From contig JBDRHN010000023.1 of NCBI GenBank assembly GCA_043816765.1, positions 17,353-81,352 on the forward strand: 64,000 nucleotides of DNA, in the 5' to 3' direction. This stretch comes from a bacterium. Its GTDB lineage: Bacteria > Patescibacteriota > Patescibacteriia > JBDRHN01. Positions 9,703 through 54,703 of the stretch are shown here, in pieces; the stretch's first letter is position 1; each line of letters opens with the position of its first letter. Under the pieces are notes generated by a model, which saw only the letters and a list, made by a program, of their open reading frames with translations, was not told the origin of the DNA and ran no database searches. Position numbers and translations under genes: made by a program.

Positions 9703-10806
9703 TTAACCAATTATAACCTTTTGCGCCAAACTTTGAAAAAAATGAAACTTGGCGGTAATCAAAAAAATAATAATCGCAACTGCCGCCAAACTTTGAAAAA
9801 TAACAGCCGGATGTTGAATTTGAATTTTTATTAAAATATTTAAAATCAAAATCAATGCTAAAAAACCCAAACCAAAAAACATAAAATAATCAAAATATTT
9901 TAAAACGACGTTAATTAAACTAGACTTAAAATTCAAAGCAGATTGCTTTACTTCAACTTCTTTAACTTTTGGCTCAATCGGATAATTCTCCCCAAGATCA
10001 ATCTCCTCGCCCATAACTTCAATAGGCAAATTGTTTTCTTGATTTTCTTTCAAACCATCCAAGCCCGCAACCCCCCTTATTGGCGGGACTTCCCCCGTCG
10101 CGGGGACAGGTTCGGCGACGCCGCCGAACCTGCCCCCGCTTGTTTTCTTGATTTCTTGATTAACGTCCCGTTCCTTTCCAAACATCTCAACCATAACCAT
10201 AGTTTTCTTGCCATTCATCTCTCCAATTAAAACAGCTACTCCGATATCATTAAATTTTGGGTTGACAATATTTTTTTTATGAGTCGCGCTTGCCAAAAGA
10301 GCTAAATGCGCCACTTCGGCAGAAGTGAAATTCATTGCTAAATTCTCGCCGGCATTCGTATAGTCATATTCCTTTTTGTCAATCCACTGCCACGGTTTTT
10401 TGCCGTCTGACGTATCATGCGCGAAATATTGATTAAGTAACATATCTTGAGCTTTATCTTTTGCGGCCTTTTCTAAAATTGGGTTAACTTTCAAGGGGGG
10501 GACACCCTCTTCAATTCTTGTTTTATTGGCAAGCTCAATGATTTGATGATAAATATCTGTTGAAAGATAAACAAAATTAGGATATATAATAAACAAAAAC
10601 AGAGTTATAAAAACTTTAAACATAATTAAAAGAGCGACAATCGCGCTCAATGATTTTGAATGCAAAATTTTTGGGCAATAATCATTTTCGGCTGTGGGAA
10701 TTAACCCGTCTTTTGCCTTTTTTCTGATAGAATTGTTTAAAAATTTCGGTTTTTGAACACTTTTTTTCATAGATATAACTATAACAATTTTTTTGAATTT
10801 TGTCAA
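9703..10806 (-). CDS. membrane-anchored CAP (SCP/PR-1-like) domain protein carrying an in-frame GC-rich palindromic insertion
   Basis: N-terminal TM helix, CAP-like region (NQYFAHDT...GENLAMNF), Gly/Pro linker encoded by palindrome 10079-10142, C-terminal TM helices. Confidence 0.7.
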   Translation of the reverse strand: MTKFKKIVIVISMKKSVQKPKFLNNSIRKKAKDGLIPTAENDYCPKILHSKSLSAIVALLIMFKVFITLFLFIIYPNFVYLSTDIYHQIIELANKTRIEEGVPPLKVNPILEKAAKDKAQDMLLNQYFAHDTSDGKKPWQWIDKKEYDYTNAGENLAMNFTSAEVAHLALLASATHKKNIVNPKFNDIGVAVLIGEMNGKKTMVMVEMFGKERDVNQEIKKTSGGRFGGVAEPVPATGEVPPIRGVAGLDGLKENQENNLPIEVMGEEIDLGENYPIEPKVKEVEVKQSALNFKSSLINVVLKYFDYFMFFGLGFLALILILNILIKIQIQHPAVIFQSLAAVAIIIFLITAKFHFFQSLAQKVIIG

Positions 10807-10818
10807 ATTTTCAAAAAA

Positions 10819-12036
10819 TCAATACTGCTCCTCCCAATACTCCACCGTAATCACGGGCGAAAAATCGCTGCCGCCCAAAGTGTCAATAATAACAGAATCA
10901 TCATAACTTATATCCACGCCATTATATAATAACGCGAAATCAACACTTCTCGCTATTATGCCGCCATTTAAAGTAAAGTCGCTTGATAAATTTGTCAAAG
11001 ACAATTCATTTCCTGCATATATCACGCCATTTACAGAAATATCATTAACGCATCGCAAAAACTCTATATTGCTTTTTGAAAACATCCCCGCTGGATATTC
11101 ATCAATATGGTTGATATTTAAAGTGGCGCTATAATCAGGGCAAACTTGCCACCATTTCTTATCGCGCCCAACAGTTATTTTTCCGCTTGTCGCCAAAACC
11201 CCGTTTACTGTTAAATCATGATTGTCTTCTATAATAATATTGCCAGAGACATAAACTGCCCCATCAAACGTGACAGGACCCGAATCCAATAAAACGTTAA
11301 ATTCCGCTTTTGAATAATACTGTCCGAGCAATTGCGCTTGCGACTTGAATGAATCCGGATCAAAAGAATCAAAATCAACAGCCGGTATATCTAAATATTC
11401 AGGAGCGGGAGGATTCACATTTGCAGAATGCATTTCAGCGGCATTTATAGTTGAAAAACCCAAAATAAAAATATCATCCGCGGCTTGCGCCTTGTCCTGC
11501 GCGTCAACAACACTGGCAAGGGTTGCCACTATATCATCATTCGCAAAAATGCTTCCATTGTCAATATCAATATCCGCCGCCGCAACATCAATATCTTGAT
11601 CTGCCAAAATCGCGTTATTATCAATCGCGCTCTCCCCCAACGCTTTAAAAATTTTCGTTTTTATCACTCGCTTGGATTGCTTGTTTCCAAAAGACATCGC
11701 GCTTGCCGCGGTAACATCCGCTTTCGCAAGATCATAATTTTGTATTAAAATATCAAAACTTCCATTGGCGAACAATTCAGAACCACCGCTATAGCTTTGC
11801 GTCCAATTTGAATCTGTTTCAAAATTATTTTCCCATGCAGGATCGTTTTTTAATTTCCAAATAACATATTCAATCCCGGATTCCGCCATATAATACGTCT
11901 GCTGAGATATGGAATAACTGTCTGAAATCCGTTTTTCGCTTAACGTCGAAGTTAAAAAAAAACAACCCATTGTTATCAACAAAGAAGTAAAAAGAATAGC
12001 CGGGATAAGAGCGAAACCGCTGGAATATTTATTCAT
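10819..12036 (-). CDS. large secreted pilus-associated protein with pilin-like N-terminal hydrophobic segment
   Basis: MNKYSSGFALIPAILF.. prepilin-like leader lacking Glu5; Asp-rich beta-type repeats; heads pilin cluster. Confidence 0.55.
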   Translation of the reverse strand: MNKYSSGFALIPAILFTSLLITMGCFFLTSTLSEKRISDSYSISQQTYYMAESGIEYVIWKLKNDPAWENNFETDSNWTQSYSGGSELFANGSFDILIQNYDLAKADVTAASAMSFGNKQSKRVIKTKIFKALGESAIDNNAILADQDIDVAAADIDIDNGSIFANDDIVATLASVVDAQDKAQAADDIFILGFSTINAAEMHSANVNPPAPEYLDIPAVDFDSFDPDSFKSQAQLLGQYYSKAEFNVLLDSGPVTFDGAVYVSGNIIIEDNHDLTVNGVLATSGKITVGRDKKWWQVCPDYSATLNINHIDEYPAGMFSKSNIEFLRCVNDISVNGVIYAGNELSLTNLSSDFTLNGGIIARSVDFALLYNGVDISYDDSVIIDTLGGSDFSPVITVEYWEEQY

Positions 12037-12049
12037 AAAATTTTTTGAA

Positions 12050-12607
12050 TTACAGATTACGACCAGCAACTTTTGTTGTTATATAATTATTCTCCCCGTT
12101 TTTTGAAAAATTAGCCTCAATGTTTATAAGATTTGAAGTTCCAAAAAAAGAGAGTGAATTAATATATTCGCCGATCAAATTATCGCTGTCTATAATTTCT
12201 GTCGGTTCGCCGAATTCATCGACCGCATTCCAACGCACATAATTTTCTGGATCAGAACCAAAACAATAATGAAGCTCCTGTCTCATTAAATTGGCGCCGT
12301 CTGCATAATATTTTATATACATCACATTCAAAACATTGTGTCCGTTTTGGAACATAATTTCCGAAGGCGCTCCCAAGGCAATTTCCGGCAAAATTGTCGC
12401 CACTTCAAATGTCTGCTTAAGTTCTCTGGTAATTTTATCTGTAAAAACGCGCGCGTTTTGGATAAGTTCATACCGTGTTTGACTTTTTTGAAAAGTATAC
12501 TGGCATAAGATATAAATAGTCGCAATAAGCGAAAAAACCAGCAAAGACATATTCAAAATTATAATAATTTCGCTTAAAGTAAAACCTGACTGATTATTAT
12601 GAAACAT
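12050..12607 (-). CDS. type IV pilin-like protein (prepilin N-terminal methylation motif)
   Basis: MFHNNQSG/FTLSEIIIIL class III signal GFTLxE; start trimmed to 12607. Confidence 0.8.
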   Translation of the reverse strand: MFHNNQSGFTLSEIIIILNMSLLVFSLIATIYILCQYTFQKSQTRYELIQNARVFTDKITRELKQTFEVATILPEIALGAPSEIMFQNGHNVLNVMYIKYYADGANLMRQELHYCFGSDPENYVRWNAVDEFGEPTEIIDSDNLIGEYINSLSFFGTSNLINIEANFSKNGENNYITTKVAGRNL

Positions 12608-12648
12608 TGATATGGGAGTTAAATATTTAGGGCTTGAGAGAAAATAAG

Positions 12649-14840: not shown

Positions 14841-14897
14841 AATAAAAACGTAGAGACACGCCATTGGCGTGTCTCTACGTTTTTATTTTAAATATTC

Positions 14898-16763
<1,866 letters not shown>

Positions 16764-16807: not shown

Positions 16808-16836
16808 CTTAGACGAGGCAGTGCCTCGTCTCTACA
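16808..16836. repeat. 29-bp palindrome family A (GTAGAGACGAGGCA[C/G]TGCCTCGTCTCTAC), copy in groES-groEL spacer
   Basis: TTAGACGAGGCAGTGCCTCGTCTCTACA. Confidence 0.8.
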
Positions 16837-17636: not shown

Positions 17637-19616
17637 ATGAAAAATCTACTCAAAAATATCCTTATAATCGTTCTTGTTTTCTTGATAATCGCAAGCGTTT
17701 TTAGCTTGTATAACGACAAAGAAACCGAACGGACAGAAGTTGGAATCGCGACAATCGCTGAAAAAGTTGAAAATGAAGAGGTGAAAAAAATCGCTGTTGT
17801 TGGCAACAAAATTGAAGTTGACTTAAAAAACGGTGAAGAATTAGTCAGTCAAAAAGAACCAAACGAATCATTCAGCCAAGCTATGGCAAATTATGGAGTT
17901 GACACTCAAAAATCAAGACAAATTCCTACCGACATCAAAGAAGAGACAGGAGCCGCTTTTTGGCTCGGCACAATGCTCCCTGTATTTCTGCCAATAATTT
18001 TTATATTCCTGCTGTTTTGGTTCGTTATGCGCGGAGTCCAAGGGGCGAATAACAGAGCCATTTCTTTTGGACACACGACAGCAAAAGAAAACAAGACGGA
18101 AAAAGATAAAAAACCTGAAGTAACTTTTAAAGATGTGGCAGGTGTAAAAGAGGCAAAAGCAGAACTTGAAGAGGTTGTTGAATTTTTAAAAACTCCTAAA
18201 AAGTTTTCTGACATGGGCGCTAAAATACCAAAAGGGGTTCTTTTGGTCGGCCCTCCCGGAACAGGTAAAACATTGCTTGCAAAAGCGGTTTCAGGAGAAG
18301 CGCAAGTTCCATTTTTTCATATATCGGGTTCGGAATTTGTGGAAATGTTTGTAGGTGTCGGGGCATCGCGCGCTCGCGACTTGTTTAAAAAAGCGAAAAA
18401 GAACGCGCCTTGTATTGTTTTCATTGACGAAATGGACGCCGTCGGACGACGGCGAGGAGCCGGACTTGGCGGCGGTCACGATGAGCGAGAGCAGACTCTT
18501 AACCAAATCTTGGTTGAAATGGACGGCTTTGAATTAAATTCCGGCGTCATAGTTTTGGCCGCGACCAACAGACCGGATGTTTTAGACCCGGCGCTTTTGC
18601 GTCCGGGAAGATTTGACCGCCAAGTAGTTCTTGACAATCCCGATATTAATGACAGAGAAAAAATTCTAGAAATTCACGCCAGAAAAAAACCTTTAGGCAA
18701 AGATGTTTCATTGCGTCAAATAGCCGAACGAACGCCCGGATTTTCCGGAGCTGACTTGGCTAACTTGCTAAACGAATCAGCAATACTGGCAACCAGAAGA
18801 AATAAAAAAGAGGTTGCCCAAGATGAGATTCTAGAAAGTATAGACAAAGTTCTGCTTGGACCACAAAGAAAAAGCCATATTCTTTCTGATAAAGAGAAAA
18901 AAATCACAGCCTGCCATGAAGCAGGTCATGCTCTTGTTTCTCACATATTGCCAAACGCCGACCCTGTGCATAAAGTTTCTATCATCTCGCGCGGACAAGC
19001 GGCTGGTTTTACAATGAATCTTCCGACAACAGATAAATATATGCACACAAAAACGGAATTCATAGATAATTTGGCTGTTCTTTTGGCTGGACACACAGCA
19101 GAACAAGAAACTTTTAACGATGTTACAACGGGCGCGTCAAACGATTTGAAAAGAGCGACGCAATTGGCAAGAAACTTGATTACGCAATGGGGAATGAGCG
19201 AAAAACTTGCGCCGCGAACTTATGGCGAGCAGGGTGATATGGTGTTTTTAGGAAAATCAATTCATGAACAGCGCGATTACAGTGAAAAAATCGCTGAAGA
19301 AATTGACACCGAAATCGCTGAGTTAATTATGCAAGCTGTAAATACCGCTAAAAAAATTATTCATGAAAATAAAGATACCCTTAAAAAAATAGCCGAGGAA
19401 CTTTTAAAGCACGAAACTTTGGAAAAAGAACACTTTGAAGCGATTTTTGATCCTGAAAAATTAAAGGCGTTTGAAGAGAAGCTGAAAAAAGCTGAAGAAG
19501 AAAAAAAGAAACAGGCGGAACTGGAAGCGAAAATTGCTTTGGAAAAAGAGGCGAAAGAAAAATTGGATGCGGCGAAGGATGGGGCGAAGGTTAAGAAAGG
19601 GAAAGAGGACATATGA
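17637..19616 (+). CDS. ftsH: ATP-dependent zinc metalloprotease FtsH with charged coiled C-terminal tail
   Basis: Walker [18 protein letters not shown] zinc motif; N-terminal TM; start at ATG 17637. Confidence 0.96.
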
Positions 19617-21525: not shown

Positions 21526-21584
21526 GTAGAGACGAGGCACTGCCTCGTCTCCAGCCCAAGACGCGGCAGTGCCTCGTCTCTACA
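21526..21584. repeat. family A palindrome, two adjacent copies between the purP paralogs
   Basis: GTAGAGACGAGGCACTGCCTCGTCTC and AAGACGCGGCAGTGCCTCGTCTCTACA. Confidence 0.85.
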
Positions 21585-26347: not shown

Positions 26348-27136
26348 ATGATTATATCAAACTCAAAAGATGCAATTCATAAAGCATGGCTTTTCCGCTT
26401 GCTTAACGCAATTTATGATAATGCGTTTTTAGCTAATAATTTATATTTTAAGGGCGGAACTTGCGCGGCTATGCTTGGATATTTAGATCGGTTTTCAATT
26501 GATTTGGATTTTGATTTGGCTGCTGAAAACAAATCCCCCCAACCCCCCTTTGCGAGAGGGGGAAATATTGAAAAAAATTTGGAAATAATATTTAAAAAAT
26601 TGGGGCTTTCTATCAAAGACAGAAGCCAAAAAGCGCCTCAATATTTTTTAAAATATCCAAGAAAAGAAAACGAGAGAAATACAATTAAAATAGATATTAC
26701 AACAGATGCGCCAAAATCCAATATTTATAAACCAATGATTTTTAAAGATATTGATAGAATTATAAATTGCCAAACCATAGAAACGATGTTTGCAAATAAA
26801 TTGGTTGCGCTTATTGATAGGTTTGAAAAAAATGGATCTATCGCAGGACGTGGTTTATATGATATTCATCATTTTTTTATCAAAGGTTTTAGATATAACA
26901 AAGAGGTAATTATTGAAAGAAGAAAAAAAGATTTGATTTCTTTTTTTGATGAGTTGATTTTATTTATAGAAAAAAATATAAATGAAACTGTTATAAATCA
27001 GGATTTGAATTATCTTTTGCCAAATGATAAATTTCAGGCGATACGAAAAGTTTTAAAAAATGAAACAAAAATGTTTTTAGAAGACGAGATGGGGATATGC
27101 GAAAAAAAATTAATACCAATGTCTAATGCGGCATAA
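26348..27136 (+). CDS. abiEii: AbiEii/AbiGii nucleotidyltransferase toxin with in-frame GC-palindrome insertion
   Basis: LYFKGGTCAAMLGYLDRFSIDLDFD signature; insertion KSPQPPFARGG at 26531-26566. Confidence 0.75.
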   Translation: MIISNSKDAIHKAWLFRLLNAIYDNAFLANNLYFKGGTCAAMLGYLDRFSIDLDFDLAAENKSPQPPFARGGNIEKNLEIIFKKLGLSIKDRSQKAPQYFLKYPRKENERNTIKIDITTDAPKSNIYKPMIFKDIDRIINCQTIETMFANKLVALIDRFEKNGSIAGRGLYDIHHFFIKGFRYNKEVIIERRKKDLISFFDELILFIEKNINETVINQDLNYLLPNDKFQAIRKVLKNETKMFLEDEMGICEKKLIPMSNAA

Positions 27137-31343: not shown

Positions 31344-31877
31344 TTATTTAAAATAAACTCCTGCATACATTGCACTTTCCAAAATCATAATAACCAAATA
31401 ATACTTTTCCATTAACTCAAGGGATGAGACAATATGTTTATACTTTATGTCTTCGCTTAAAGAGTTTATGATTACCTTGGAAACCAAATGCTCTTCATCG
31501 CCTATTTTTTCAATTATTGCCTCGGAGGCAGTAAAAGCAAGCTTTATATAATAAACATCTTGACTTGGATATTTACAAAAACCGTTGCCAAAATAATATC
31601 CACTTTCTCTGGGGTTGCTGTTGAAAGAACTTATTCCTGAATCATACCTAAATGGACTAATTTTTTTATTAAAATTACCCATTATATCATCAATTTCAAA
31701 CTCAAAAGTCTTCATAAATTCACGAATTATCTCATCGTTTACCTTTAATTCAGCAAACAAAGAGACACATTGGGATATCCAATCAAGCAACTCCTTCTCC
31801 TGAAAAACTGTCTTATTGTCAATAAACTGTTTAAGTGCTTCTGCTCTTTTTTTGTACTCTTGTGATTTTAAATTCAT
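31344..31877 (-). CDS. hypothetical protein
   Basis: 177-aa ORF, no recognised motif. Confidence 0.5.
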   Translation of the reverse strand: MNLKSQEYKKRAEALKQFIDNKTVFQEKELLDWISQCVSLFAELKVNDEIIREFMKTFEFEIDDIMGNFNKKISPFRYDSGISSFNSNPRESGYYFGNGFCKYPSQDVYYIKLAFTASEAIIEKIGDEEHLVSKVIINSLSEDIKYKHIVSSLELMEKYYLVIMILESAMYAGVYFK

Positions 31878-31974: not shown

Positions 31975-32073
31975 CAAAAACCTGTATCCTGAACTGTCAC
32001 CGGATGGTGGCGTGGCTGGGACTCCCAGCATAGGGACGTGGTTGGGAAAAGCCCTTTTTTAGGGCGTTTTTTT
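31975..32073 (+). ncRNA. candidate small RNA (~100 nt) ending at intrinsic terminator
   Basis: no CDS; GC-rich structured core; terminator GCCCTTTTTTAGGGC + T7 at 32051-32073. Confidence 0.4.
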
Positions 32074-32162: not shown

Positions 32163-32410
32163 CTGTCATTCCAGAAAATTTTTTCCCACGGCATTTAACA
32201 ATAGTATTTTGCTCTGCTTAGAATGATATTAACAAAAACTTGGTTAAACTCACTGAAAAAATTTATCTGGAATCCAGGAGGCATTGCAATAACTCCTGGA
32301 TTCCAAATAAATTTTTTAATCTTATTGTTCTGGCTATTATTAAATAAAAAATATTATTTTATTTTAATTTGTTTTAATCAGCGCCGTGGAAAAAATTTTT
32401 TGGAATGACA
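32163..32410. mobile_element. MITE-like element (~250 bp) with 27-bp terminal inverted repeats and central palindrome
   Basis: TIR GTCATTCCAGAAAATTTTTTCCCACGGC / GCCGTGGAAAAAATTTTTTGGAATGAC; central CTGGAATCCAGGAG..CTCCTGGATTCCA; related partial copy 54760-54920. Confidence 0.6.
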
Positions 32411-32442: not shown

Positions 32443-33444
32443 CTATAACGTCGTAATCGGCCTTGACTGCGTGATATAAAATTTACCTTTTGAAAAAGCC
32501 CATTCAATGTCTTGCGGTTTTTTGTAATGCTTTTCAATTTGACAGCAAATTTTGGACAGTTCAATTATTTGCTTGTTATTTAATTTCTGTTTTTCTTGTT
32601 TTGATTTTGAAACAGGTTGCCACACAATTCCTGAACTGGTTGAATTTTTGCGAACCAACATTTTTTCTTGCTCTGCAATATTTATATCTAAAATTTCAAA
32701 TTCTCCATCGTAGAGACGAGGCACTGCCTCGTCTCTATACTTGTTCACAATATAACTGTCCGGCGTTATCTGTCCTGAAACTATCGCCTCTCCCAGTCCG
32801 TATCCGGCTTCAATGATCATCTGATTTTTATCTTTTGTGATGGGGTGAACAGTGAAACAGACCCCTGATATTTCTGACTGGATCATTTTCTGAACCACAA
32901 CGGCAACGCCGATTTTTTGGTCAACTAAATTTTTTTCATAACGGTAAAAAATCGCTCTTGAGGTATAAAGCGATGACCAGCATTTCTTAACGTTTTTTAA
33001 AAGCGTTTTTTTTGTTGTGTTTAAATATGTTTCCAGCTCCCCGGCCCATGACGCTACTATTGAATCTTCTGCTGTGGCTGAACTGCGCACCGCCACAGAT
33101 TTTGCTTTAAGTTTTTTAAATTCCGCGTTAATTTCGTTAATTAAAACTTTCTGAATTTTGGTGTCGTTTATAATATCGCGAATAATATTAGACGCGCGGT
33201 CAATGGAATTTATGTCATCAAAATTTATTTGAGATAATTGGGCTTTTATTTCCAGCCCGACTTCCGCTGTCTCCGCGCGCGATCTCGCGCTTAAAAAATA
33301 ATCAAATGCGTCGGCTAAAATAACAAAACCATTCGGAACCGGAATTTTTACGTTAATCATTTCTCCGAGCGACGCGCCTTTCCCGCCGGCGGTTTTAATG
33401 TCTCTTGCGGAGATTTTTGAGAATGGGGAGGTGAATTTTGGCAT
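32443..33444 (-). CDS. PPDK_N-type ATP-grasp protein (PEP synthase / rifampin phosphotransferase N-domain family), stand-alone, with in-frame palindrome insertion
   Basis: GGKGASLGEM motif, RSSATAEDS, DIEWA..QSRPIT; insertion YRDEAVPRLYDGE at 32710-32738. Confidence 0.8.
   Translation of the reverse strand: MPKFTSPFSKISARDIKTAGGKGASLGEMINVKIPVPNGFVILADAFDYFLSARSRAETAEVGLEIKAQLSQINFDDINSIDRASNIIRDIINDTKIQKVLINEINAEFKKLKAKSVAVRSSATAEDSIVASWAGELETYLNTTKKTLLKNVKKCWSSLYTSRAIFYRYEKNLVDQKIGVAVVVQKMIQSEISGVCFTVHPITKDKNQMIIEAGYGLGEAIVSGQITPDSYIVNKYRDEAVPRLYDGEFEILDINIAEQEKMLVRKNSTSSGIVWQPVSKSKQEKQKLNNKQIIELSKICCQIEKHYKKPQDIEWAFSKGKFYITQSRPITTL
32710..32738. repeat. family A palindrome inside PPDK_N CDS (in frame)
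   Basis: GTAGAGACGAGGCACTGCCTCGTCTCTAT. Confidence 0.85.
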
Positions 33445-33448
33445 AGTT

Positions 33449-34687
33449 TTATTTTAAAATTTTTATTATTCCTTTATCTGCGTCAACTTCAACTACATCT
33501 CCAGTTTTAATAATTTTCGTAACATCTTTTATAGCAATAATACATGGGGTGCCGAGTTCTCTGGAAATTACCGCCGCATGCGTTGTAATGCCTCCGGTTT
33601 CAGTTAAAACAGCCGCGGCTTTTTTCATGGCTGGCACATATCTGGTTGATGTATATGCGGCAACTAAAATATCTCCTTTTTTTATTGAAGCAAGCGCGTC
33701 ATCTTTTCCGTTTGTTACAACTGCCTTTCCTTTTGTCTTGCCTGGCGATGCGGGTTGTCCTTTAAGCACTTTTTGATTCCCAACAGGAAATACTTCGGTT
33801 AGTTTCCCTTTTTCAAGAAAACGTTCCGCTTCATTTCCTTGATAAATTTGTAATTTTTTTCCTTGATAAAAAAGTATAGTCAATTTTTTGCGTTCTGAAA
33901 TAAGTTTTGTGGGGGGCGTTTTTGTTGCTATCATTTGTCTAATTTCTTTTGGTAAAAGAAATAACGTATCTTTAGTGTCTGAGAGTTTAATCCTGTTCGC
34001 AATCTGCAGAAGAAGTTTATTCCAAAAAACAGCGCGTTCTTCTGTAAATAAGGCGGATCCATCAGCTCTAATATACGCTCCGGCGCGCAATATTGTGCTT
34101 AAATTTTCCTCTTTTTTGTTTAAACGAAAAGCTCCATTTAATTTAGGCATGAGTATCTTTACATAACGAGTTTCGCGGAGCGGTTGTGTGTAGTAAATTT
34201 TATTTTGATCAACTTCTTTTGCATTATCGCTATATTCTGATAATGCCTCAAATAAATCTTCTCCAGTGAGAGAACTAAACATATAAAGCATATTACTTAC
34301 TGCGGCTATGGGAACGCTTAGTTCAAACCCCGAAAGAAATAATCTGCAAAGTTCGGCATCCGAAATATTGTCAAATTTTACAGAATTATTTTCTTTTAAA
34401 AATTTTCTTAGTTTTATTTTTTCTGCTTCATAAAAATTTAATACGTTTTTAATCCATTTGGTATCGTTTAATTTATTGCGAAAACATTTTGAAAGATGAA
34501 TAACATCATCCTCAAGCCCATATTTTTTCTGCTCCCCGTTTTTAATAATTGATAACAATCTATAACGACAACCGCACAAATTTTCAAATATTTCAAAAAA
34601 TTCTTCGCCCGCAAAAGCAACAGCCTGAAGCGGCACAATATCAACACTAAAAAATAATTCGTATTTTTTGTTTTTAAATTTGATCAT
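33449..34687 (-). CDS. PEP-utilizing-enzyme mobile (phosphohistidine swivel) domain protein with ~260-aa unknown N-terminal domain
   Basis: C-terminal ETGGITTHAAVISRELGTPCIIA swivel signature; no PEP-binding TIM barrel. Confidence 0.75.
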   Translation of the reverse strand: MIKFKNKKYELFFSVDIVPLQAVAFAGEEFFEIFENLCGCRYRLLSIIKNGEQKKYGLEDDVIHLSKCFRNKLNDTKWIKNVLNFYEAEKIKLRKFLKENNSVKFDNISDAELCRLFLSGFELSVPIAAVSNMLYMFSSLTGEDLFEALSEYSDNAKEVDQNKIYYTQPLRETRYVKILMPKLNGAFRLNKKEENLSTILRAGAYIRADGSALFTEERAVFWNKLLLQIANRIKLSDTKDTLFLLPKEIRQMIATKTPPTKLISERKKLTILFYQGKKLQIYQGNEAERFLEKGKLTEVFPVGNQKVLKGQPASPGKTKGKAVVTNGKDDALASIKKGDILVAAYTSTRYVPAMKKAAAVLTETGGITTHAAVISRELGTPCIIAIKDVTKIIKTGDVVEVDADKGIIKILK

Positions 34688-36269: not shown

Positions 36270-37334
36270 TCAAGCTAATTTTACGATCCTCACAATCCCC
36301 TTTTCCACGTCAACTTCCACTTTGTCGCCGTCTTTTAAAACTTTCGTAGCGATTTTTGTTCCGATGATGCAGGGGATTTTCAGTTCGCGGGCAATTATTG
36401 CGGCGTGGCAAGTTATTCCGCCGTCGTCAGTTATGATGGCGGCGGCTTTTTTCATGCCAACAAGGTGTTCGGGGCGAGTCATTGGCGCGACTAAAATATC
36501 TCCTTTTTCCACCTTGCCGATATTTTGAGCTGTCATAATAATTTTAACTTTTCCTGTGGCTTTGCCTATGGATACCGCAATTCCGCTTATTTCATTTACG
36601 TCTCCAAAATCCAGCCTGTTGACTATATTTAAAAAATTCTTAGCCTCTTGTCCTGCGTAAATATTCGTTATCTTTCCATTTCTATAAATAAACAAGCTCG
36701 CTTTTCTTCTATTTTTTAATTCAGAAACATTAAATTTTTTCGCTAAAATATTTTTGAATTCCCCAGAACAAGAATATCGCAACAGTTCATGATCTATTCC
36801 TGTCCTTCTGCTAATTTCTTTTAAAATTTTATCAGCCAAAGCAATAAAAGCTAAAGTATACACTTTTCTTTGATCCTGCCATTTGATAAATATTTCAGTA
36901 AGCCTTGAAATCGCTTTAATTTCCGGAGTAAATTTGTATTTTCCAAACAATTTTTCTTTTTCCCGTTTATGTTTTTCTAAAATTTTATTTTGCTTATGTT
37001 TAAATATTCTTTTTATTTCGTCTTCCATTTCTTTAAAGCTATATTCTTTGTGCCCGACATAACTTGATTTTATCCATGAATATTTTATCAAATGCGATTC
37101 CGCCAAAATAGCCAAATCTTTTTTCTTGCTAAGAAATTTTTTTAAACTCCCATTCTTGAATCCCGATTTTTTTATTTTAACCGCGATTTTTCTTAAATCA
37201 TCATCCTCTTGGTTTATAAATGACGGATCAATCGGCGCGCTTAAAACGGAAAATATTTTGTGATAATTTTTTATTTTATTTTCTTCGCAATATTTCTTGG
37301 TCAAAAAATCAAATCTTTTATCAGCGTAAAACAT
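36270..37334 (-). CDS. paralogous swivel (phosphohistidine) domain protein with unknown N-terminal domain
   Basis: DDGGITCHAAIIARELKIPCIIG; C-terminal ~150 aa collinear with 33449..34687. Confidence 0.75.
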   Translation of the reverse strand: MFYADKRFDFLTKKYCEENKIKNYHKIFSVLSAPIDPSFINQEDDDLRKIAVKIKKSGFKNGSLKKFLSKKKDLAILAESHLIKYSWIKSSYVGHKEYSFKEMEDEIKRIFKHKQNKILEKHKREKEKLFGKYKFTPEIKAISRLTEIFIKWQDQRKVYTLAFIALADKILKEISRRTGIDHELLRYSCSGEFKNILAKKFNVSELKNRRKASLFIYRNGKITNIYAGQEAKNFLNIVNRLDFGDVNEISGIAVSIGKATGKVKIIMTAQNIGKVEKGDILVAPMTRPEHLVGMKKAAAIITDDGGITCHAAIIARELKIPCIIGTKIATKVLKDGDKVEVDVEKGIVRIVKLA

Positions 37335-38783: not shown

Positions 38784-38902
38784 ATAATTTAGCTAAATAA
38801 TTAGTTTGGATATACTCAAATAATTATATAGTATTTTTTGGGTGCAGTCAAATTTTTAAAAAAAATAGCGGCTTGTCTGCCGCTATGTTGAGAAAAAAAA
38901 TT

Positions 38903-38944
38903 TTCGGGTAGGTTCGGCGACGTCGCCGAACCTACCCGAAAATT
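38903..38944 (-). terminator. 42-bp perfect GC-rich palindrome acting as efp terminator
   Basis: TTTTCGGGTAGGTTCGGCGACGTCGCCGAACCTACCCGAAAA; core shared with 10109-10130; T-run follows on minus strand. Confidence 0.6.
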
Positions 38945-38950
38945 TTTTTC

Positions 38951-41314: not shown

Positions 41315-42925
41315 ATGTCCCCAAAAAACAACCCAATAAAATACTTCTTTATTTTAGGCAACAACCCCGCTCTTTCGTTGGCTGAAATTTTCGGGTTGCT
41401 TAATTCTGGAGATAAAGACTTCCGCCTCGCGGGAGTCTCTCCGCAGAGGACTCCCGCGAGACAAGGTTGTCATACTCCCACGTCGGAGTCCCCCGCCTGC
41501 GGGCGGGGAGACTCCGACGGAGCACCGAGTCAAAATTTTAATTTACATAAAAATGCCAGAATAATAACTTTTTGTAAAGATTTTTTGATTATTGAATTAG
41601 ATAAAAAAATTGACGCGAATAAGTTGATGGGGGTTTTGGGCGGGACTATTAAAATAGGGATTATTTTAGAAAGCCAAAATGCAAATATTGAAACGCGCGA
41701 TTTGATTGAAAAAATTAATATTGATAAAAATAAAAAATTTTATTTTGGTTTTAGCGCTTATGGTAAAATTGGCGCGAATTTTAAACGGCTTGCAATGGAA
41801 ATAAAAAAAAAATTAAAGCAAGATGGGACATCTTCGCGCTGGGTAATCTCGCGCGAAAAGCAGTTGTCTTCTGTCGTTGTTAAAAAAAATAAATTAGTTG
41901 GTGAAAATGGAACGGAGTTTTGTGTTTTGAAAAATAAAGATAAAATTTTTTGGGGCAAGACTTTGGCTGTTCAGGAATTTGAAGATTATGGACAAAGAGA
42001 TTTTTATCGACCCGCAAGAGATCCGAAATCAGGGATGATTCCCCCAAAACTTGCGAATATGATGATCAATTTAGCGCGCGCTGAATTGGACTTTAAAACA
42101 AAAAACGGCATAACTCTTTTAGATCCGTTTTGCGGAAGCGGGACGATTTTGCAAGAAGCGGCGATTTTGGGGATTAATAAAATAATCGGGAGCGACTTGA
42201 GCGAAAAGGCGACGCGAGATTCGGAACAAAATTTGAAATGGCTGGAAGAACGTATTGACATTTCACCGCAGTCCGCTAACGGAAAAAGTGGTATTGCGCG
42301 GATAGATGCGACGACGTCGCCGCATGCGGGAAAGAGGCTGAACACCCCGCTGGACGTTCAGCGCCTAGGGCGCGAGGACTCCTGCGCAATTTCAATTTTT
42401 AATTCTGACGTCAGAAAAATAAGCGAACTAATTCCCGCCGGTTCTGTTGATTTAATAGTTGCCGAACCTTATCTGGGACCGCCTTTATCTGGGGGTGAAA
42501 ACGAAAATAGAATTAGCCAAATTGTTCAAGAGCTAAGCGAGTTATATTTATCAGCTTTTAAAGAGTTTAAAAAAATTCTAAAAAAAGACGGGTGTATTTG
42601 CATGGTCTGGCCGGTCTTTGCTATTTGCAAAAAAAATATATTTCTGCCGATTTTGGGTGAGGTAGAGAAACTGGGGTTTAGGCAGGTTAGGTTTGATAGC
42701 GGCAATTATGTTAATTTAATTTTTGATGGCGGTTGTAAAACGCAATTTGCCGCTCCCGCGCCGCAGTCCCCTGACGGGAGACTGCGGCGGAGCACAGGTA
42801 ATGATGGCGATGAATTAAAAAATTTTAAAAAAAATCTCGCTGATAATTTTAGCGAGCGTGGAAATATTGTTTACGGACGAGATAGGCAGATTGTCAAAAG
42901 AGAGATTGCGATTTTTAAAATATAA
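41315..42925 (+). CDS. THUMP-domain SAM-dependent RNA methyltransferase (UPF0020/Trm11-like) with three in-frame GC-rich palindromic insertions
   Basis: LLDPFCGSGTILQEAAILG SAM motif, DLIVAEPY; insertions at 41423-41528, 42300-42385, 42748-42810. Confidence 0.75.
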   Translation: MSPKNNPIKYFFILGNNPALSLAEIFGLLNSGDKDFRLAGVSPQRTPARQGCHTPTSESPACGRGDSDGAPSQNFNLHKNARIITFCKDFLIIELDKKIDANKLMGVLGGTIKIGIILESQNANIETRDLIEKINIDKNKKFYFGFSAYGKIGANFKRLAMEIKKKLKQDGTSSRWVISREKQLSSVVVKKNKLVGENGTEFCVLKNKDKIFWGKTLAVQEFEDYGQRDFYRPARDPKSGMIPPKLANMMINLARAELDFKTKNGITLLDPFCGSGTILQEAAILGINKIIGSDLSEKATRDSEQNLKWLEERIDISPQSANGKSGIARIDATTSPHAGKRLNTPLDVQRLGREDSCAISIFNSDVRKISELIPAGSVDLIVAEPYLGPPLSGGENENRISQIVQELSELYLSAFKEFKKILKKDGCICMVWPVFAICKKNIFLPILGEVEKLGFRQVRFDSGNYVNLIFDGGCKTQFAAPAPQSPDGRLRRSTGNDGDELKNFKKNLADNFSERGNIVYGRDRQIVKREIAIFKI

Positions 42926-42926: not shown

Positions 42927-43385
42927 TCAGGTGGTAATATAAATTAAACAAATAATAATAACCAATTGCAACAATAAGCCCTGCTTGACTGTCATTTTTG
43001 AGGGTATATAATTATGAATATAGCCATGAAAACTGCTAAAAGGCTTTAAAAATTTGGGTTTAAAAATTTGATAATATATATTTAAAACATCTGGTAAAAT
43101 ACTGCCGAGAACAGCCCAAAAAATATGAGCTGATTTTGGAATTATTGTATATGTAAAAATATAAAGAAGATAAAAAATAGTAATGAAAGCGTCAAGAATG
43201 TTTAGACTCAAAATCAAATCTCTATTAATGCGGCGGCTAAACCAATGCATTAAATTTCCGTCTCCATGGGGGATGAAATCTAAAACAAAATGAGAAACGA
43301 CCGCTAAAAGAAAAATTCCAGTAGCTGATGTTGTTATGCTCTTGGCGATAATAACGCCGATGGCTGTGTGAACGGAGATTAACAT
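42927..43385 (-). CDS. membrane protein, YdjM/DUF457-like metal-dependent hydrolase (tentative)
   Basis: 4-5 TM helices, HFVLDFIPHGD motif. Confidence 0.45.
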   Translation of the reverse strand: MLISVHTAIGVIIAKSITTSATGIFLLAVVSHFVLDFIPHGDGNLMHWFSRRINRDLILSLNILDAFITIFYLLYIFTYTIIPKSAHIFWAVLGSILPDVLNIYYQIFKPKFLKPFSSFHGYIHNYIPSKMTVKQGLLLQLVIIICLIYITT

Positions 43386-43471
43386 AATTTAGTAATTAGT
43401 AACTAGTAATCAGTAACTAGTAAATTCCTATCCCTTATTACTGATTACTAGTTACTAATTACTAAAACATG

Positions 43472-43545
43472 TAGCAGGAGTGGGGCTTGAACCCACGACC
43501 TTGGCGTTATGAGTGCCACGCTCTAACCAGCTGAGCTATCCTGCC
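43472..43545 (-). tRNA. tRNA-Met (anticodon CAU; Ile-lysidine not excluded)
   Basis: manual cloverleaf: acceptor GGCAGGA/TCCTGCT, D-arm GCTC/GAGC, anticodon loop CTCATAA, T-arm GTGGG-TTCAAGC-CCCAC. Confidence 0.75.
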
Positions 43546-46061: not shown

Positions 46062-46064
46062 TTT

Positions 46065-46093
46065 GTAGAGACGAGGCACTGCCTCGTCTCTAC
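46065..46093. repeat. family A palindrome between 7TM gene and ATP-grasp gene
   Basis: GTAGAGACGAGGCACTGCCTCGTCTCTACA. Confidence 0.85.
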
Positions 46094-46109
46094 ATTATTT
46101 TATTAATTT

Positions 46110-50647: not shown

Positions 50648-50740
50648 ACACAGACTAAAGCGCAGATAAACACAGATAAAATTATAAAAAATCAGTGTTC
50701 ATCTGCGCCCGAATGGTCAGTGTTTATTTGTGTGCTATTA
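50638..50740 (+). repeat. ~100-bp CAGATAAACACAG-family repeat, copy 1 (overlaps trpB stop)
   Basis: near-identical to 51138-51240; internal imperfect palindrome GCGCAGATAAACAC...GTGTTCATCTGCGC. Confidence 0.85.
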
Positions 50741-50747
50741 TATAAAT

Positions 50748-51155
50748 ATGCAAAATTATCAACACTCAGAATTGACCAAAAAAATTATTTCCTGTTTTTA
50801 TCAAGTCTACAATACTCTCGGTTATGGGTTTTTAGAAAAGGTCTATGAAAATTCTTTAATAAAAGAGTTGAATAAAAATGGATTAAAACCAGTTCAACAA
50901 ATGCCGATTAAGGTTTATTATGAAGGTGAATTGGTTGGTGATTATTTTGCAGATATTGTTGTTGAAAATTTGGTGATATTAGAACTAAAAGCGCAGGAAC
51001 TTCTATGCCCTGAGAACGAAGCTCAGCTATTGAACTATTTAAAAGCAACGAAGTATGAGATTGGTTTATTGTTAAATTTTGGAACAAAGCCAGAGATAAG
51101 GCGAAAAATATATAGCAATAATTTAAAGAATTCAACACAGATAAACACAGACTAA
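50748..51155 (+). CDS. GxxExxY protein (predicted PD-(D/E)xK nuclease fold)
   Basis: LGYGFLEKVYENSL motif plus DIVVEN..LELK; flanked by direct repeats; start at ATG 50748. Confidence 0.75.
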   Translation: MQNYQHSELTKKIISCFYQVYNTLGYGFLEKVYENSLIKELNKNGLKPVQQMPIKVYYEGELVGDYFADIVVENLVILELKAQELLCPENEAQLLNYLKATKYEIGLLLNFGTKPEIRRKIYSNNLKNSTQINTD

Positions 51156-52166: not shown

Positions 52167-52337
52167 TTCTTTCACCTCCTTTCAATGGAAAAATATTTAA
52201 TCACAAATTAAATTATATTATGATTTTTGTCAAGAGAAAATAAAACACCTGTCATTCTGAGCGACTTTTACCGCGAACTTGAAGAAATAAAAAAATTTAA
52301 TAATTGCATAAAATTGAAAAACAATCAGAATTAAGCG

Positions 52338-52495
52338 AAGAATCCCGCGGTTGTTGCAGGAACAACGAGATTCTACTCGTCGGCTCCATAGTCCCGAACG
52401 AAGTGAGGGCTATGGAGCCGATATGCGCGCGATAGCAAAACATGCCGGCTCCATAGCCCCCGCTGGCGCGGGGGACTATGGAGCCAACGCGTATT
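52338..52495. repeat. GC-rich palindrome cluster (GGCTCCATAG..CTATGGAGCC hairpins x2 and others)
   Basis: hairpins at 52383-52420 and 52447-52485; partial copy 62137-62150. Confidence 0.8.
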
Positions 52496-52627
52496 AAATC
52501 TAAAATAAATACCAAGCAAGGTGCTGGACACCCAAGGGGGTGTTTGGTTGGCGGTTGAAAAATTTATAAAATAAATAAAGCCCCCGCAAGCTTGAAGTGA
52601 AAATAAGACATTGCGGGGGGGGGGCGG

Positions 52628-52753
52628 TCAACAGCTCAGCATGCCTACTACGCATGCTATGGCGGTTAAACCGCCCGCCATTTCGGATTGAGTCAACAAA
52701 AAAAATAAAAACCCAATCCCGACTAAAAAATAAAAAAAATAAAATCTTCCCAT
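52628..52753 (-). CDS. small hydrophobic peptide (41 aa) with consensus SD, paralog of 52072..52166
   Basis: AGAAAGGAGGTGAGAAAAATG; MGRFYFFYFLVGIGFLFFLLTQSEMAGGLTAIACVVGMLSC; 3' half overlaps GC palindromes. Confidence 0.45.
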   Translation of the reverse strand: MGRFYFFYFLVGIGFLFFLLTQSEMAGGLTAIACVVGMLSC

Positions 52754-52813
52754 TTTTCTCACCTCCTTTCTGGAAAAGACTTAAAAGATCAATATAATTT
52801 TATACATTAAATT

Positions 52814-54040
52814 ATGCCTTTTGTCAAGAAAAAAAATAAAAAATTTTTCCACGCACTTCTATTGCTCTGCGCTTTTTTAATTCTTCTGCCATCAGCAATA
52901 CTAGCCGAATACAAGACTCCCCTATCCGTATTTGTCCGCGAAGGATGCGGGCATTGCTCCCATGAAGAAGAATTTATAACCGAACTCCAAAACAAACGTT
53001 CTGATTTTGAGGTTTTTTATTATGATATCAATACCGAAACCGGCCGTGAAAAATTTTTAGAAATTACAAAGCTTGAAAATCTGCAACAAGGCACGCCGAT
53101 TGCTTTAGTCGGGAACACAATAGTTCAGGGATTTGGGACAGCTGAAACAACAGGGAAAGAGATTGAAGAATTATTAGATTTAAGTTGCGGAAAACAGACT
53201 TTAAATTTTGAAGAATATTTGTCAAAAGGAGGATCAAAAGGCGGGGTAAAGCCGATTGAAAGCGAGAACCAAGAAGAATGCGACGCCAATTCAAATAAAT
53301 TTTTGGTAGATGTTCCTTTTTACGGAGTCGTAAATTTAAAATCATTTTCACTCCCCATGATTGCCACTATTTTAGGCTTTGTTGATGGGTTCAATCCATG
53401 CGCGATGTGGGTTTTAATAACTTTCTTGCTTGTGCTGATGCAAATTGGCGACAAAAAAAGGATGTGGCAAATCGCGGGACTGTTTATTGCCGCTGAAACA
53501 ATAATGTATTTTTTGATTTTGAATCTATGGTTCACGACATGGAATTTTATCGGACTTGATCGTATTGTTACTCCCATCATAGGGATTGTGGCAATCGGCG
53601 GAGGAATTTTCTTTTTGTGGGAAGCGAAAAAAAATGATGGCACTTGCCATGTTACAAATCCGGAACAGCGGAAAAAAACTCATAATAAAATAAAAGATCT
53701 CGCGGCTCGTCCGATGACTATTGCAACAGCCATCGGCGTTATCGGTCTTGCGCTTTCGGTAAATATTATTGAATTTGCCTGTTCAATAGGAATCCCTCAG
53801 GCTTTTACTAAAATTTTAGAAATCAACCGTTTGTCTTGGGGAGCTAATCAAGGATTAATATTGCTATATACTCTCTTCTATATGATTGATGATATCATTG
53901 TTTTCGGGCTTGCGCTTTGGAGCTTTGAACATCTTCATTTAACTCAAAAATACGCAAGATGGTGCAATATCATCGGCGGGATTTTGATGATAATTTTGGG
54001 ACTTCTCTTAATATTTAATCCGGCGATGTTGAGATTTTGA
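52814..54040 (+). CDS. thioredoxin-like (CGHC) periplasmic domain fused to CcdA/DsbD-type transmembrane thiol-disulfide transporter
   Basis: signal peptide, CGHC redox motif, TM domain with NPC (GFNPCAMW) and second Cys (EFACSIG). Confidence 0.8.
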   Translation: MPFVKKKNKKFFHALLLLCAFLILLPSAILAEYKTPLSVFVREGCGHCSHEEEFITELQNKRSDFEVFYYDINTETGREKFLEITKLENLQQGTPIALVGNTIVQGFGTAETTGKEIEELLDLSCGKQTLNFEEYLSKGGSKGGVKPIESENQEECDANSNKFLVDVPFYGVVNLKSFSLPMIATILGFVDGFNPCAMWVLITFLLVLMQIGDKKRMWQIAGLFIAAETIMYFLILNLWFTTWNFIGLDRIVTPIIGIVAIGGGIFFLWEAKKNDGTCHVTNPEQRKKTHNKIKDLAARPMTIATAIGVIGLALSVNIIEFACSIGIPQAFTKILEINRLSWGANQGLILLYTLFYMIDDIIVFGLALWSFEHLHLTQKYARWCNIIGGILMIILGLLLIFNPAMLRF

Positions 54041-54045
54041 TTTGT

Positions 54046-54150
54046 TGAATAGCACACAGATGAACACTGACCCTGCGGGCGCAGATTAACACTAATTTTT
54101 TATAATTTTAAATCTGTGTTTATCTGCGCTTTAGTCTGTGTTAATCTGTG
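54046..54150 (-). repeat. ~100-bp CAGATAAACACAG-family repeat, copy 3 (inverted orientation)
   Basis: ATCTGTGTTTATCTGCGCTTTAGTCTGTGTTAATCTG is the reverse complement of copy-1 5' part. Confidence 0.8.
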
Positions 54151-54166
54151 TCCTATTTTTTTAATT

Positions 54167-54703
54167 ATGTATTTTGTAAAATTAAAAACCAAAAAAGATA
54201 CTGTTGGTTTTGCTAATCAAATAGCTAATATTTGCAACAATCAAACCCCCCAACCCCCCTTGTCAGGGGGGCTATATGTTGTTGCCCTCATTGGCGAGCT
54301 TGGGGTTGGGAAGACTTTTTTTACGAAAGCTTTGGGAAAGGCGCTTGGGGTTAAAGAAACGATTAAAAGTCCGAGTTTTAATTTGATGAAAGTTTATGAA
54401 ATACCGGGCAGACGAACCGTAGAGACGAGGCAGTGCCTCGTCTCTACACAAATCAAAACGTTAGTTCATGTTGATTGTTATCGTTTGAATAGTGCTGAGG
54501 AGTTAATTGATATTGGGCTTTTGGATTATTTTGGATATAATAATACTCTTATTGTTATTGAGTGGGCTGATAAAATAAAAAAAATCTTGCCGAAAGATGC
54601 AGTTTGGGTAAAATTTAAAATGGGAAAAGATGGGGTGAGAATGGCGGCGGTGAATTTAAAACCAATGTCATTCCAAAAAATTTTTTCCATCAATATTAGT
54701 TAA
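54167..54703 (+). CDS. tsaE: tRNA t6A biosynthesis ATPase TsaE with two in-frame palindromic insertions
   Basis: Walker A GELGVGKT; SPSFNLMKVYE...LVHVDCYRL TsaE signature interrupted by RRTVETRQCLVST (54419-54448); QTPQPPLSGG insertion at 54243-54272; start at ATG 54167. Confidence 0.78.
   Translation: MYFVKLKTKKDTVGFANQIANICNNQTPQPPLSGGLYVVALIGELGVGKTFFTKALGKALGVKETIKSPSFNLMKVYEIPGRRTVETRQCLVSTQIKTLVHVDCYRLNSAEELIDIGLLDYFGYNNTLIVIEWADKIKKILPKDAVWVKFKMGKDGVRMAAVNLKPMSFQKIFSINIS
54419..54448. repeat. family A palindrome inside tsaE (in frame)
   Basis: GTAGAGACGAGGCAGTGCCTCGTCTCTACA. Confidence 0.85.

Follow-up and report, generated by a model that had tools for sequence, protein, structure and literature searches.

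Short GC-rich palindromes that lie in frame within conserved protein genes raise the question of what they are and how they came to be there. The case considered here is a stretch of 64,000 nt, termed the window, from a member of the Patescibacteria, or candidate phyla radiation (CPR) (contig JBDRHN010000023.1, positions 17,353–81,352); gene content, hairpin counts and the inventory of elements all refer to this stretch. The window has a GC content of 35.8% and carries a ribosomal-protein cluster, EF-Tu, groES/EL, ftsH, two archaeal-type purP genes, tsaE and efp, and its nearest named homologues are from Patescibacteria/CPR (Parcubacteria, Falkowbacteria, Kuenenbacteria and Moranbacteria). An initial annotation of this DNA had pointed out GC-rich palindromes in five protein genes, and every one of them is found again at its position. 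These segments are probably selfish repeats of the repetitive extragenic palindrome (REP) type, belonging to several families of 27–45 bp that have spread through an AT-rich (36% GC) CPR genome.

The repeats are grouped here as families A to E. Family A, (G)TAGAGACGAGGCA[C/G]TGCCTCGTCTCTA(C), is present at 16808 (degenerate), as an adjacent pair at 21526 and 21559, and at 32710, 46064 and 54419; five matches with up to three mismatches are found in the window, and none is expected. Related palindromes with other cores, GTAGAGAC...GTCTCTAC, are at 14850 and 62861. Family B, CCCCCCAACCCCCCTT..GGGGG, is found in the AbiEii and tsaE genes (16/16 identical) and, in degenerate form, in the CAP gene. 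Family C, AGGTTCGGCGACGYCGCCGAACCT, has one copy in that gene and an identical one between genes, at 38910. Family D, CGCCGCAGTCYCC..GGRGACTGCGGCG, lies at 16715 and 42759 and has a variant at 41481; its arms give seven matches in the window against 0.6 expected. Family E, GGTGCTGGACACC.., is at 16670 and is degenerate at 42337 and 52520. A GTAG foot characterizes family A (GTAGAGACG...), the copies at 14850 and 62861, and family C (GTAGGTTCGG...). Families B, D and E have no GTAG ends, and the element at 41481 is CGTC-tagged instead.

A strict count yields 13 perfect GC-rich hairpins in the window, against 0–4 in Markov shuffles, and in all the 64 kb hold eight GTAGAGAC-type copies and ~22 GC-rich palindromes. 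In DNA folding, families A, C and D score z −5 to −13, as do the elements at sites 1 and 3 of a methyltransferase gene described below; folding is weak for family B (z −1.4 and −1.6) and for the degenerate site 2 of the methyltransferase (z −1.2). Rfam covariance models run over the window detect two tRNAs and a DUF3800-IX RNA only, with zero overlap with the palindromes. Two candidates were set aside. A hairpin at 58561–58588 within a RelE-like open reading frame (ORF) is a single copy without sign of insertion and was not counted, and a GC-rich stretch of FtsH at 18431–18492 is a conserved AAA motif region and not an insert.

Pfam assigns the host genes to CAP, AbiEii, PPDK_N, TsaE and a UPF0020/Trm11-like methyltransferase, and all host ORFs with elements are intact, as had been proposed. 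The tsaE gene (54167–54703) carries two elements on the plus strand. A family B copy at 54246–54271 encodes PQPPLSGG directly before the P-loop strand, and a family A copy at 54419–54447 (z −7.1) encodes VETRQCLVST. Alignment with 18 orthologues shows that both GC-rich segments are insertions relative to the usual protein of 140–150 residues, and in an alignment with solved TsaE structures from the PDB there is a gap of 13–14 residues at the family A insert. An AlphaFold2 model of the protein has a predicted local distance difference test score (pLDDT) of 83.6; residues 21–40 and 81–100, modelled as coil, are its sole internal blocks of lowered pLDDT and coincide with the two inserts. At the DNA level the second site can be followed in loci from other genomes, designated here by L and a number. 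It is empty in L001, relative to which the family A element of the window is a net addition of 30 nt; L003 has an extended version of it that retains the arms (GTAGAGACGAG-TCCGTCGGTTGACGGA-CTCGTCTCTAC), and L002 has a palindrome unrelated to family A. The peptides predicted across the insert junctions are ...GRRTVETRQCLVSTQIK... and ...RRTVETRQCLVSTQIK....

A second genic copy of family A is at 32710–32738 (minus strand; z −7.4) in a gene for a PPDK_N protein, the N-domain of phosphoenolpyruvate (PEP) synthase (32443–33444). It encodes YRDEAVPRLYD and appears as a clean loop gap of 11 residues against the PEP synthase structure 8a8e_A; the predicted peptide across the junction is ...NKYRDEAVPRLYDGEF.... 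In the AbiEii gene (26348–27136) family B is found at 26535–26562 (plus strand) as a weak hairpin (z −1.4) encoding PQPPFARGG. The result is an insert of 7–8 residues after the DLDFD motif, and it is missing from 13/13 of the closest representatives. The CAP-domain gene (9703–10806, minus strand) has a segment at 10063–10144 (minus strand; z −6.6) that turns out to be a composite of three hairpins, a feature not noted in the initial annotation: a B-like head, a CCCCG hairpin and a family C palindrome at 10100–10139 with degenerate GTAG ends. The composite accounts for ~27 residues of the linker that follows the CAP domain. As to the genomic setting of the PPDK_N gene, PEP-synthase-like functions are in separate ORFs, with PEP-utilizers domains encoded at 33449–34687 and 36270–37334. 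An AAA_14/DUF4143 ATPase gene lies between these split ORFs, and the window holds three AAA_14/DUF4143 paralogues in all (34830, 37572 and 59011).

The methyltransferase has the most elaborate pattern, with at least five elements in three regions. The initial annotation had recognized three sites in a THUMP methyltransferase; the three regions are confirmed, and a Pfam search detects no THUMP domain in the protein. Its length is 536 residues, against ~390–430 in most homologues, and orthologue alignments place the excess in the three insert regions. Site 1 consists of a palindrome at 41416–41460 (CTCGCGGGAGTC..GACTCCCGCGAG; z −5.2) and the CGTC-tagged palindrome at 41481–41519 (CGTCGGAGTCCCC..GGGGAGACTCCGACG; z −6.0), the latter 97% identical to its counterpart in L123. 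Site 2 (42264–42388) combines a degenerate D element with a short palindrome at 42306–42325 and an E-like element at 42337–42362, and site 3 (42759–42789; z −5.0) is a family D palindrome encoding PQSPDGRLRRS; all are on the plus strand. Site 1 is common only to the 80%-identical relative L123 and is missing in L124, L125 and L002. Site 2 differs by lineage, being of D/E type in the window and L123, a B dimer in L124 and another sequence in L125; the D element of site 3 is common to the window, L123 and L124. In the AlphaFold2 model (pLDDT 74.5) residues 34–78, 317–356 and 473–498 are the only long stretches with pLDDT <50 and match the inserts, and the remainder is confidently folded. The contig end of L123 (~3000–3106) contains a duplicated stretch around the family D palindrome, probably because the palindrome broke the assembly there.

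In sum, the families are repeated, and where orthologues or structures could be aligned, the segments prove to be insertions that keep the frame and fall in loops. The proposal of in-frame insertion in five genes is thus borne out by orthologue or structure alignments for TsaE, the methyltransferase, PPDK_N and AbiEii; the CAP segment would be an insertion on one sign only, the identity of its palindrome to the intergenic copy at 38910. For tsaE and the methyltransferase, where alignment with orthologues had been suggested, the inserts are lineage-specific, and relatives either lack them or have different ones at the same loops. Placement in surface loops, also anticipated, agrees with predicted models in which the inserts are low-confidence loops of well-folded cores, and with the gapped TsaE and PPDK_N structures. 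As modelled, the elements appear to be exposed at the surface, clear of the catalytic core.

The same families are found outside genes as terminator-like hairpins, as had been noted for the family C core at 38894–38949. By hairpin count and manual inventory there are ~11 intergenic and ~10–11 genic elements. Coding sequence makes up 86% of the window and intergenic sequence 14%, and the elements are enriched ~6–7 fold in the latter. Intergenic positions include gaps between convergent or tandem genes, the groES-groEL spacer (three copies) and the space between the purP paralogues. A GTAG-tagged palindrome, GTAGAGACACGCCATTGGCGTGTCTCTAC, with A/T-run flanks (14843–14885; z −12.9) is terminator-like and is situated between the convergent metK and groEL. 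The groES-groEL spacer has a family E palindrome at 16670–16701 (GGTGCTGGACACC..GGTGTCCAGCACC), a family D palindrome at 16715–16744 (CGCCGCAGTCTCC..GGGGACTGCGGCG) and the degenerate family A copy at 16808–16835, and two adjacent family A copies (21526–21553 and 21559–21583) occupy 21526–21583 between the tandem purP paralogues. The element at 38894–38949, 3′ of efp, is a perfect palindrome of 56 nt with the family C core (GTAGGTTCGGCGAC/GTCGCCGAACCTAC) and A/T-run flanks (z −11.3); judged by its sequence, it resembles a terminator that acts in both directions. Family A at 46064–46094, between a 7TM-transglutaminase-like gene and an ATP-grasp/MATCAP gene, is terminator-like on both strands. 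Two intergenic hairpins with common arms GGCTCCATAG..CTATGGAGCC are at 52381–52486 (z −6.0), and a GC-rich hairpin pair at 57545–57596 (z −5.0) lies between a RhuM-family gene and an HTH/SocA-Panacea gene. The intergenic palindrome at 62861–62888 is of GTAGAGACG type with a different core (GTAGAGACGCATTGCAATGCGTCTCTAC); its sequence is identical in L027, L055 and L058, a close variant is found in L065, and L199 has a GTAGAGAC-type match at the corresponding position. With the exception of the copy near efp, these intergenic copies are additions to the initial annotation. The strongest terminator-like sites in the window are the copies at 14843, 38894 and 46064, two of them on both strands.

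The syntenic relative L001 contains one strict hairpin in 20 kb, against 13 in the 64-kb window, and this low number points to a hairpin expansion in the lineage of the window. A separate observation concerns the region 3′ of tsaE, where L001 (10488–10521) and L003 (1145–1178) have an orthologous terminator-like palindrome with compensatory changes (GTTCAAC/GTTGAAC vs GTCCAAC/GTTGGAC). The window has an AT-rich palindrome pair at this position instead.

How widespread is family A? A scan for GTAGAGACGAG-N(3–30)-CTCGTCTCTAC over one genome per GTDB species found at least 119 stretches, against ~1 by chance on a rough estimate; the counts that follow concern the matches listed. The GTAGAGACGAG...CTCGTCTCTAC arms are present in metagenome-assembled genomes of more than ten phyla, on contigs of 27–63% GC. 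Hosts include several Patescibacteria lineages, Omnitrophota, Ignavibacteria/Melioribacteraceae, Bacteroidales, Chloroflexota and Acidobacteriota, as well as Planctomycetota, Gammaproteobacteria, Cyanobacteria, WOR-3 and Calditrichaceae. The inner stems vary across genomes, stay complementary, and occur as lineage-biased variants: GGCATGCC in Ignavibacteria/Bacteroidetes, GGCA[N]TGCC in CPR, GCCGNCGGC in Anaerolineae and GGCTTGCC in Acidobacteria. No match for family A or family C was found in the viral contigs of IMG/VR, and a phage vector is therefore unsupported for these two families.

Most family A copies elsewhere (91/123) are intergenic or at gene edges, and the genic minority is large. 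In-frame copies number 25 of 32 with long open frames on both sides (of the 123), the criterion being at least 80 open codons on both sides of the element; some of the ORFs have 1000–2000 codons. Long ORFs of this kind are found in L073 (2064 residues), L114 (1941 residues, with two copies), L099 and L117. The sole frames used by the 25 copies are those giving VETR(H/Q)CLVST or VETRHASSLQ, and (C/R)RDEA(L/M/V)PRLY. The two genic family A copies of the window use the same two stop-free frames, with VETRQCLVST in TsaE and YRDEAVPRLYD in the PPDK_N protein.

The loci anchored by these palindromes (at least 119) also point to an enzyme. Clustering of their ORFs gives one recurrent family, Y1_Tnp, at ~10 loci from different phyla, with Pfam scores of up to 35 bits at a cut-off of 23. 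The top NCBIfam match is 'REP-associated tyrosine transposase' (RAYT), at 51–62 bits, which is under the cut-off of 80 and is mostly split in two stretches. These RAYT-like proteins have conserved HUH, W-Q-x-R-F-Y-D-H-I-I-R and Y-x3-N motifs. In Escherichia coli TnpA-REP, residues W94, Q95, E100, H101 and R104 contact GTAG, and N119 is essential (PMC6006769). To judge from their spacing, the RAYT-like motifs would correspond to these GTAG-contact positions, with E100 replaced by D, and to the N119 position. We take N119 to lie four residues after the catalytic tyrosine in the E. coli numbering.

RAYT-like genes are found at L075:1157–1714, L081:2298–2891, L064:2530–3252, L050:283–852, L065:3946–4563, L105:381–1019, L102:893–1639 and L026:4900–5688. 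In three of them the arrangement resembles a REPtron: the gene is flanked on both sides by one palindrome variant in L102 and L064, and in L081 a copy lies just upstream. The same variant is also present in frame within RAYT-like ORFs, between the HUH and WQxRFYDH motifs. The clade comprises 2753 clusters, many members of which are named RayT (JGI) or transposase of Moranbacteria/Parcubacteria (NCBI). A palindrome-encoded peptide between the motifs is found in most of the best 120 of the 2753 clusters (P0241–P0360), and some have at least two. P0252, P0264 and P0336 carry RDEAVPRLY, the very variant of the PPDK_N insert in the window. In L026 a further RAYT-like gene (1516–2150) is split into two frames exactly at a 29-nt copy of family A, and may be a pseudogene or represent a copy that is not in frame. 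Family A is thus linked to RAYT-like genes in other genomes.

A mechanism can be proposed from these data. The gene for a RAYT-like HUH-Y1 (IS200-like) transposase would lie in another part of the genome, and the enzyme would mobilize family A, and probably the other GTAG-tagged families, by recognizing the hairpin and the GTAG tetranucleotide on single-stranded DNA. Most surviving copies would be intergenic, and some would double as terminator hairpins. A genic copy would survive only where the net insertion is a multiple of three, where its reading frame is one of the two on each strand that avoid the TAG of the element, and where a surface loop tolerates 8–40 extra, mostly disordered residues. 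Mobilization in this genome, translation of the inserts and the role of selection as a filter are what we infer.

A broader proposal can be made with less assurance. It is conceivable, and we would put it somewhat below an even chance, that a cosmopolitan RAYT-like clade, whose genes bear their own REP in frame, has family A as its cognate repeat. The repeat would have spread over more than ten phyla (among the matches listed) and seeded disordered loops in CPR housekeeping proteins, its core being kept by nucleotide-level selection or concerted evolution while it is translated, as a form of dual-coding DNA.

The other families are distributed differently outside the window. A family B-like sequence, CCCCCAACCCCCCTT..AGGGGGG, occurs in 50 viral contigs of IMG/VR with 37–68% GC, mostly inside ORFs, where it encodes peptides of the PP(N/Q/T)PPLxKGG type; transposases are not enriched near these 50 matches. 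Family D is rare in metagenomes (23 stretches; AT-rich contigs account for ~8, several of which are inside long ORFs), and among the retrieved loci of relatives it is limited to the orthologous methyltransferase site of L123 and L124. Families C and E have no copies in the other retrieved loci. CPR glycosyltransferase genes (L037:569–1870 and L101:192–1517) contain more repeat-encoded peptides, for example VIAREQGDRSNP and EIATVAKLPRNDT, which suggests additional cosmopolitan insert families. The initial annotation regarded the presence of several families in one window as unusual; for this lineage it probably is not, since relatives carry other inserts at the same sites and CPR glycosyltransferases are full of repeat-encoded peptides.

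Several observations weigh against the spread of selfish, transposase-mobilized REP-type repeats. The 64-kb window encodes no transposase of any kind. The flanks of the 123 family A copies show neither a target-site duplication nor a target motif, and only a T(−1)/A(+1) bias. The elements measure 28–29 nt and the net insertions 21–33 nt, so the two lengths do not fix the unit that moves. Besides being untagged, families B, D and E have no associated enzyme, and the family B hairpin is weak. Of the 50 viral family B matches, 18 are in the linker of a single phage replication-protein gene family upstream of a DnaB-like helicase gene. Lastly, sequence conservation in the methyltransferase gene is uneven. 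Between the window and L123 identity is 97–100% in the palindrome cores of sites 1 and 3, 85% in the remaining gene and 77% at third codon positions; at site 3 of L124 a compensatory double change (CGCCGCAG/CTGCGGCG to CGACGCAG/CTGCGTCG) keeps the pairing. This points to nucleotide-level constraint or concerted evolution and not to neutral junk. Core identity and compensatory change favour structural constraint, gene conversion or re-insertion over neutral drift, and the data cannot separate these three.

The last point is also an argument for reading the palindromes as primarily functional nucleic-acid elements under selection, i.e. terminators, hairpins for mRNA stability or translation pausing, or protein-binding sites, with translation incidental. 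That the intergenic copies are the strongest terminator-like sites, and that the family A inner stems co-vary and stay paired, is in keeping with this. However, the same sequences recur in genes with no relation to one another, both stop-free frames are used, and close relatives carry them at different positions; genic copies have no T-runs, the copies at methyltransferase site 2 and at 16808 are decaying, and gene conversion or recent re-insertion could equally produce the high identity. A primary function of this kind is unlikely, and it overlaps in part with selfish spread by way of domestication. Less likely again is an origin and spread that needs no dedicated transposase, for example through template switching or fold-back synthesis at palindromes and subsequent gene conversion between copies. 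Such a process would explain why 15/123 family A copies (matches listed) are central to longer palindromes, with flanks that extend the pairing by at least 4 nt against ~0.6 such copies expected. It would also fit the nested or extended core variants, as in L003, the lack of a target-site duplication, and a window devoid of transposases. It does not readily account for identical sequences of 27–29 nt with unrelated flanks at many loci, for the GTAG ends, or for the strong physical association with RAYT-like genes, REPtron-like layouts included.

Perhaps the elements are never translated, being excised from the transcript or bypassed by the ribosome like mitochondrial byp elements or T4 gene 60. 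The split RAYT-like ORF of L026 is the kind of case this would predict, and it is not direct evidence. Against it, all genic copies of the window and the 25/32 elsewhere (matches listed) are read through without a stop, net insert lengths are multiples of three, and only two stop-free frames are used, so that bypass or excision is very improbable. There is also the question of whether the segments are ancestral low-complexity linkers, or artefacts of assembly or binning. Like many linkers, the inserts abound in Gly, Pro, Arg and Ala, and the L123 contig ends in a duplicated stretch at a palindrome. This explanation is effectively refuted by nucleotide-identical copies in unrelated genes and in intergenic DNA, by the lack of inserts in most orthologues, and by orthologous copies common to independent assemblies from different samples. 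Insertion of selfish REP-type repeats is therefore the explanation retained here.

Other features of the window may be recorded. A second palindromic family, AT-rich and made up of CCTGGATTCCARATAAATTT inverted pairs, is intergenic at 32256–32317 and 54737–54840, with four arm matches against none expected. AT-rich AAAGTT-type repeats (AAAGTTATAAAGTT...) at 29–126 and 981–1011 represent another dispersed family, found also at L001:2851–2957, L002:6084–6112 and L089:6661–6691, at intergenic sites that are non-orthologous. A 35-nt AT-rich inverted repeat (TAGTAATTAGTAACTAGTAATCAGTAA...) at 43382–43472 directly adjoins tRNA-Met. The DUF3800-IX small RNA motif is at 31979–32047 (plus strand; 52.9 bits, gathering score 36.8), and its neighbour is an ORF of 177 codons (31344–31877) without a Pfam match. 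ARAGORN predicts a tRNA-Ile with a UAU anticodon at 55940–56013 (plus strand), to which the L001 sequence is 95% identical. Bacterial tRNA-Ile species with this anticodon are probably uncommon. The cumulative GC skew has its minimum at ~41200, and between rpsF and the methyltransferase gene the coding strand changes from minus to plus. Such a switch point may be origin-like; the window contains no dnaA. Between trpB and trpA, at 50730–51155, is a gene of the 23S rRNA-intervening-sequence protein family, in the same order as in L001.

The general phenomenon is already known from Rickettsia palindromic elements (RPEs) and intragenic REPs. New are the CPR host, a REP sequence that crosses phyla, and REPs in frame inside RAYT genes; in the literature searched, no top-ranked paper ties RAYT or REPINs to CPR or contains the palindrome or its peptides. 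If the proposed explanation is true, a substantial share of the extra segments that lengthen CPR/Patescibacteria proteins and hamper their alignment would be mobile-element debris and not adaptive domains. Annotation, phylogenomics and structure prediction would be affected across much of the bacterial tree, and new disordered loops would have a concrete, ongoing source. A cross-phylum repeat embedded in its own transposase gene would challenge the view of REPs as species-specific, extragenic and strictly vertical, and a simple 29-nt substrate with a compact protein of ~190 residues would lend itself to biochemical tests. On the practical side, palindromes break assemblies, and the spurious but recognizable peptide motifs that they give rise to, among them VETRHASSLQ, RDEALPRLY and PPNPPLxKGG, could flag inserts automatically.

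Comparison with known systems helps to place the elements. Fungal mitochondrial GC clusters and byp elements are short GC-rich hairpins that colonize AT-rich genomes, coding genes included. They differ in being organellar, and the ribosome bypasses byp elements, which can lie out of frame, whereas the copies described here keep the frame open and are presumably translated. Intrinsic terminators share with the copies at 14843, 38894 and 46064 a GC-rich stem followed by a T-run, often on both strands; however, ordinary terminators are not sequence-identical at unrelated loci and are not in frame inside genes. Rickettsia palindromic elements were reportedly described by Ogata and colleagues in 2000 (as cited in PMC3733652). 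The likeness to them drawn in the initial annotation is apt in that selfish palindromes are in frame in conserved genes of a small AT-rich genome, adding peptides while the ORF is kept, and in that the same families are intergenic too. It does not extend to the class of element: RPE-1 is 100–150 bp long and Rickettsia-specific, and the elements here have no evident sequence relationship to it (the RPE consensus was not compared). Their size of 27–45 bp and their GTAG/CGTC ends place them with REPs.

Miniature inverted-repeat transposable elements such as Correia, RUP and Nezha are likewise non-autonomous, mobilized in trans and sometimes in frame, with lengths of 70–300 bp, terminal inverted repeats and target-site duplications (PMC10969869). 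The whole element here is one hairpin, and neither terminal inverted repeats nor a target-site duplication was found. Within the Rickettsia elements, RPE-4 and RPE-6 are CGTC REPs without a known transposase, and intragenic GTAG/CGTC REPs are known from Opitutus terrae, R. conorii (RPE-4 and RPE-6) and other species (Di Nocera, 2013; PMC3733652). Family A differs from these two in having a candidate RAYT.

The closest counterparts are the GTAG-tagged REPs and REPINs, which Nunvar in 2010 and Bertels and Rainey in 2011 are said to have described with RAYT (TnpA-REP) transposases. Their hallmark, GTAG...CTAC ends (PMC3733652), is shared by families A and C. In family A the GTAG itself is paired with CTAC, and the element is therefore a perfect palindrome. 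REPs are described as species-specific (Quentin, 2018; PMC6006769), and REPIN-RAYT systems as vertically inherited (PMC5581495), whereas the 11-nt arms of family A are present in more than ten phyla among the matches listed. Other differences are the high genic fraction, the in-frame repeat in the RAYT-like ORF itself, the NCBIfam score under the cut-off, and families B, D and E being untagged. The likeness lies in hairpins of 20–40 bp with a 5′ GTAG, in recurring copies that are mostly intergenic near gene 3′ ends and occasionally in frame within genes, and in HUH-Y1 RAYT genes that are flanked by the repeat and have conserved putative GTAG-contact residues.

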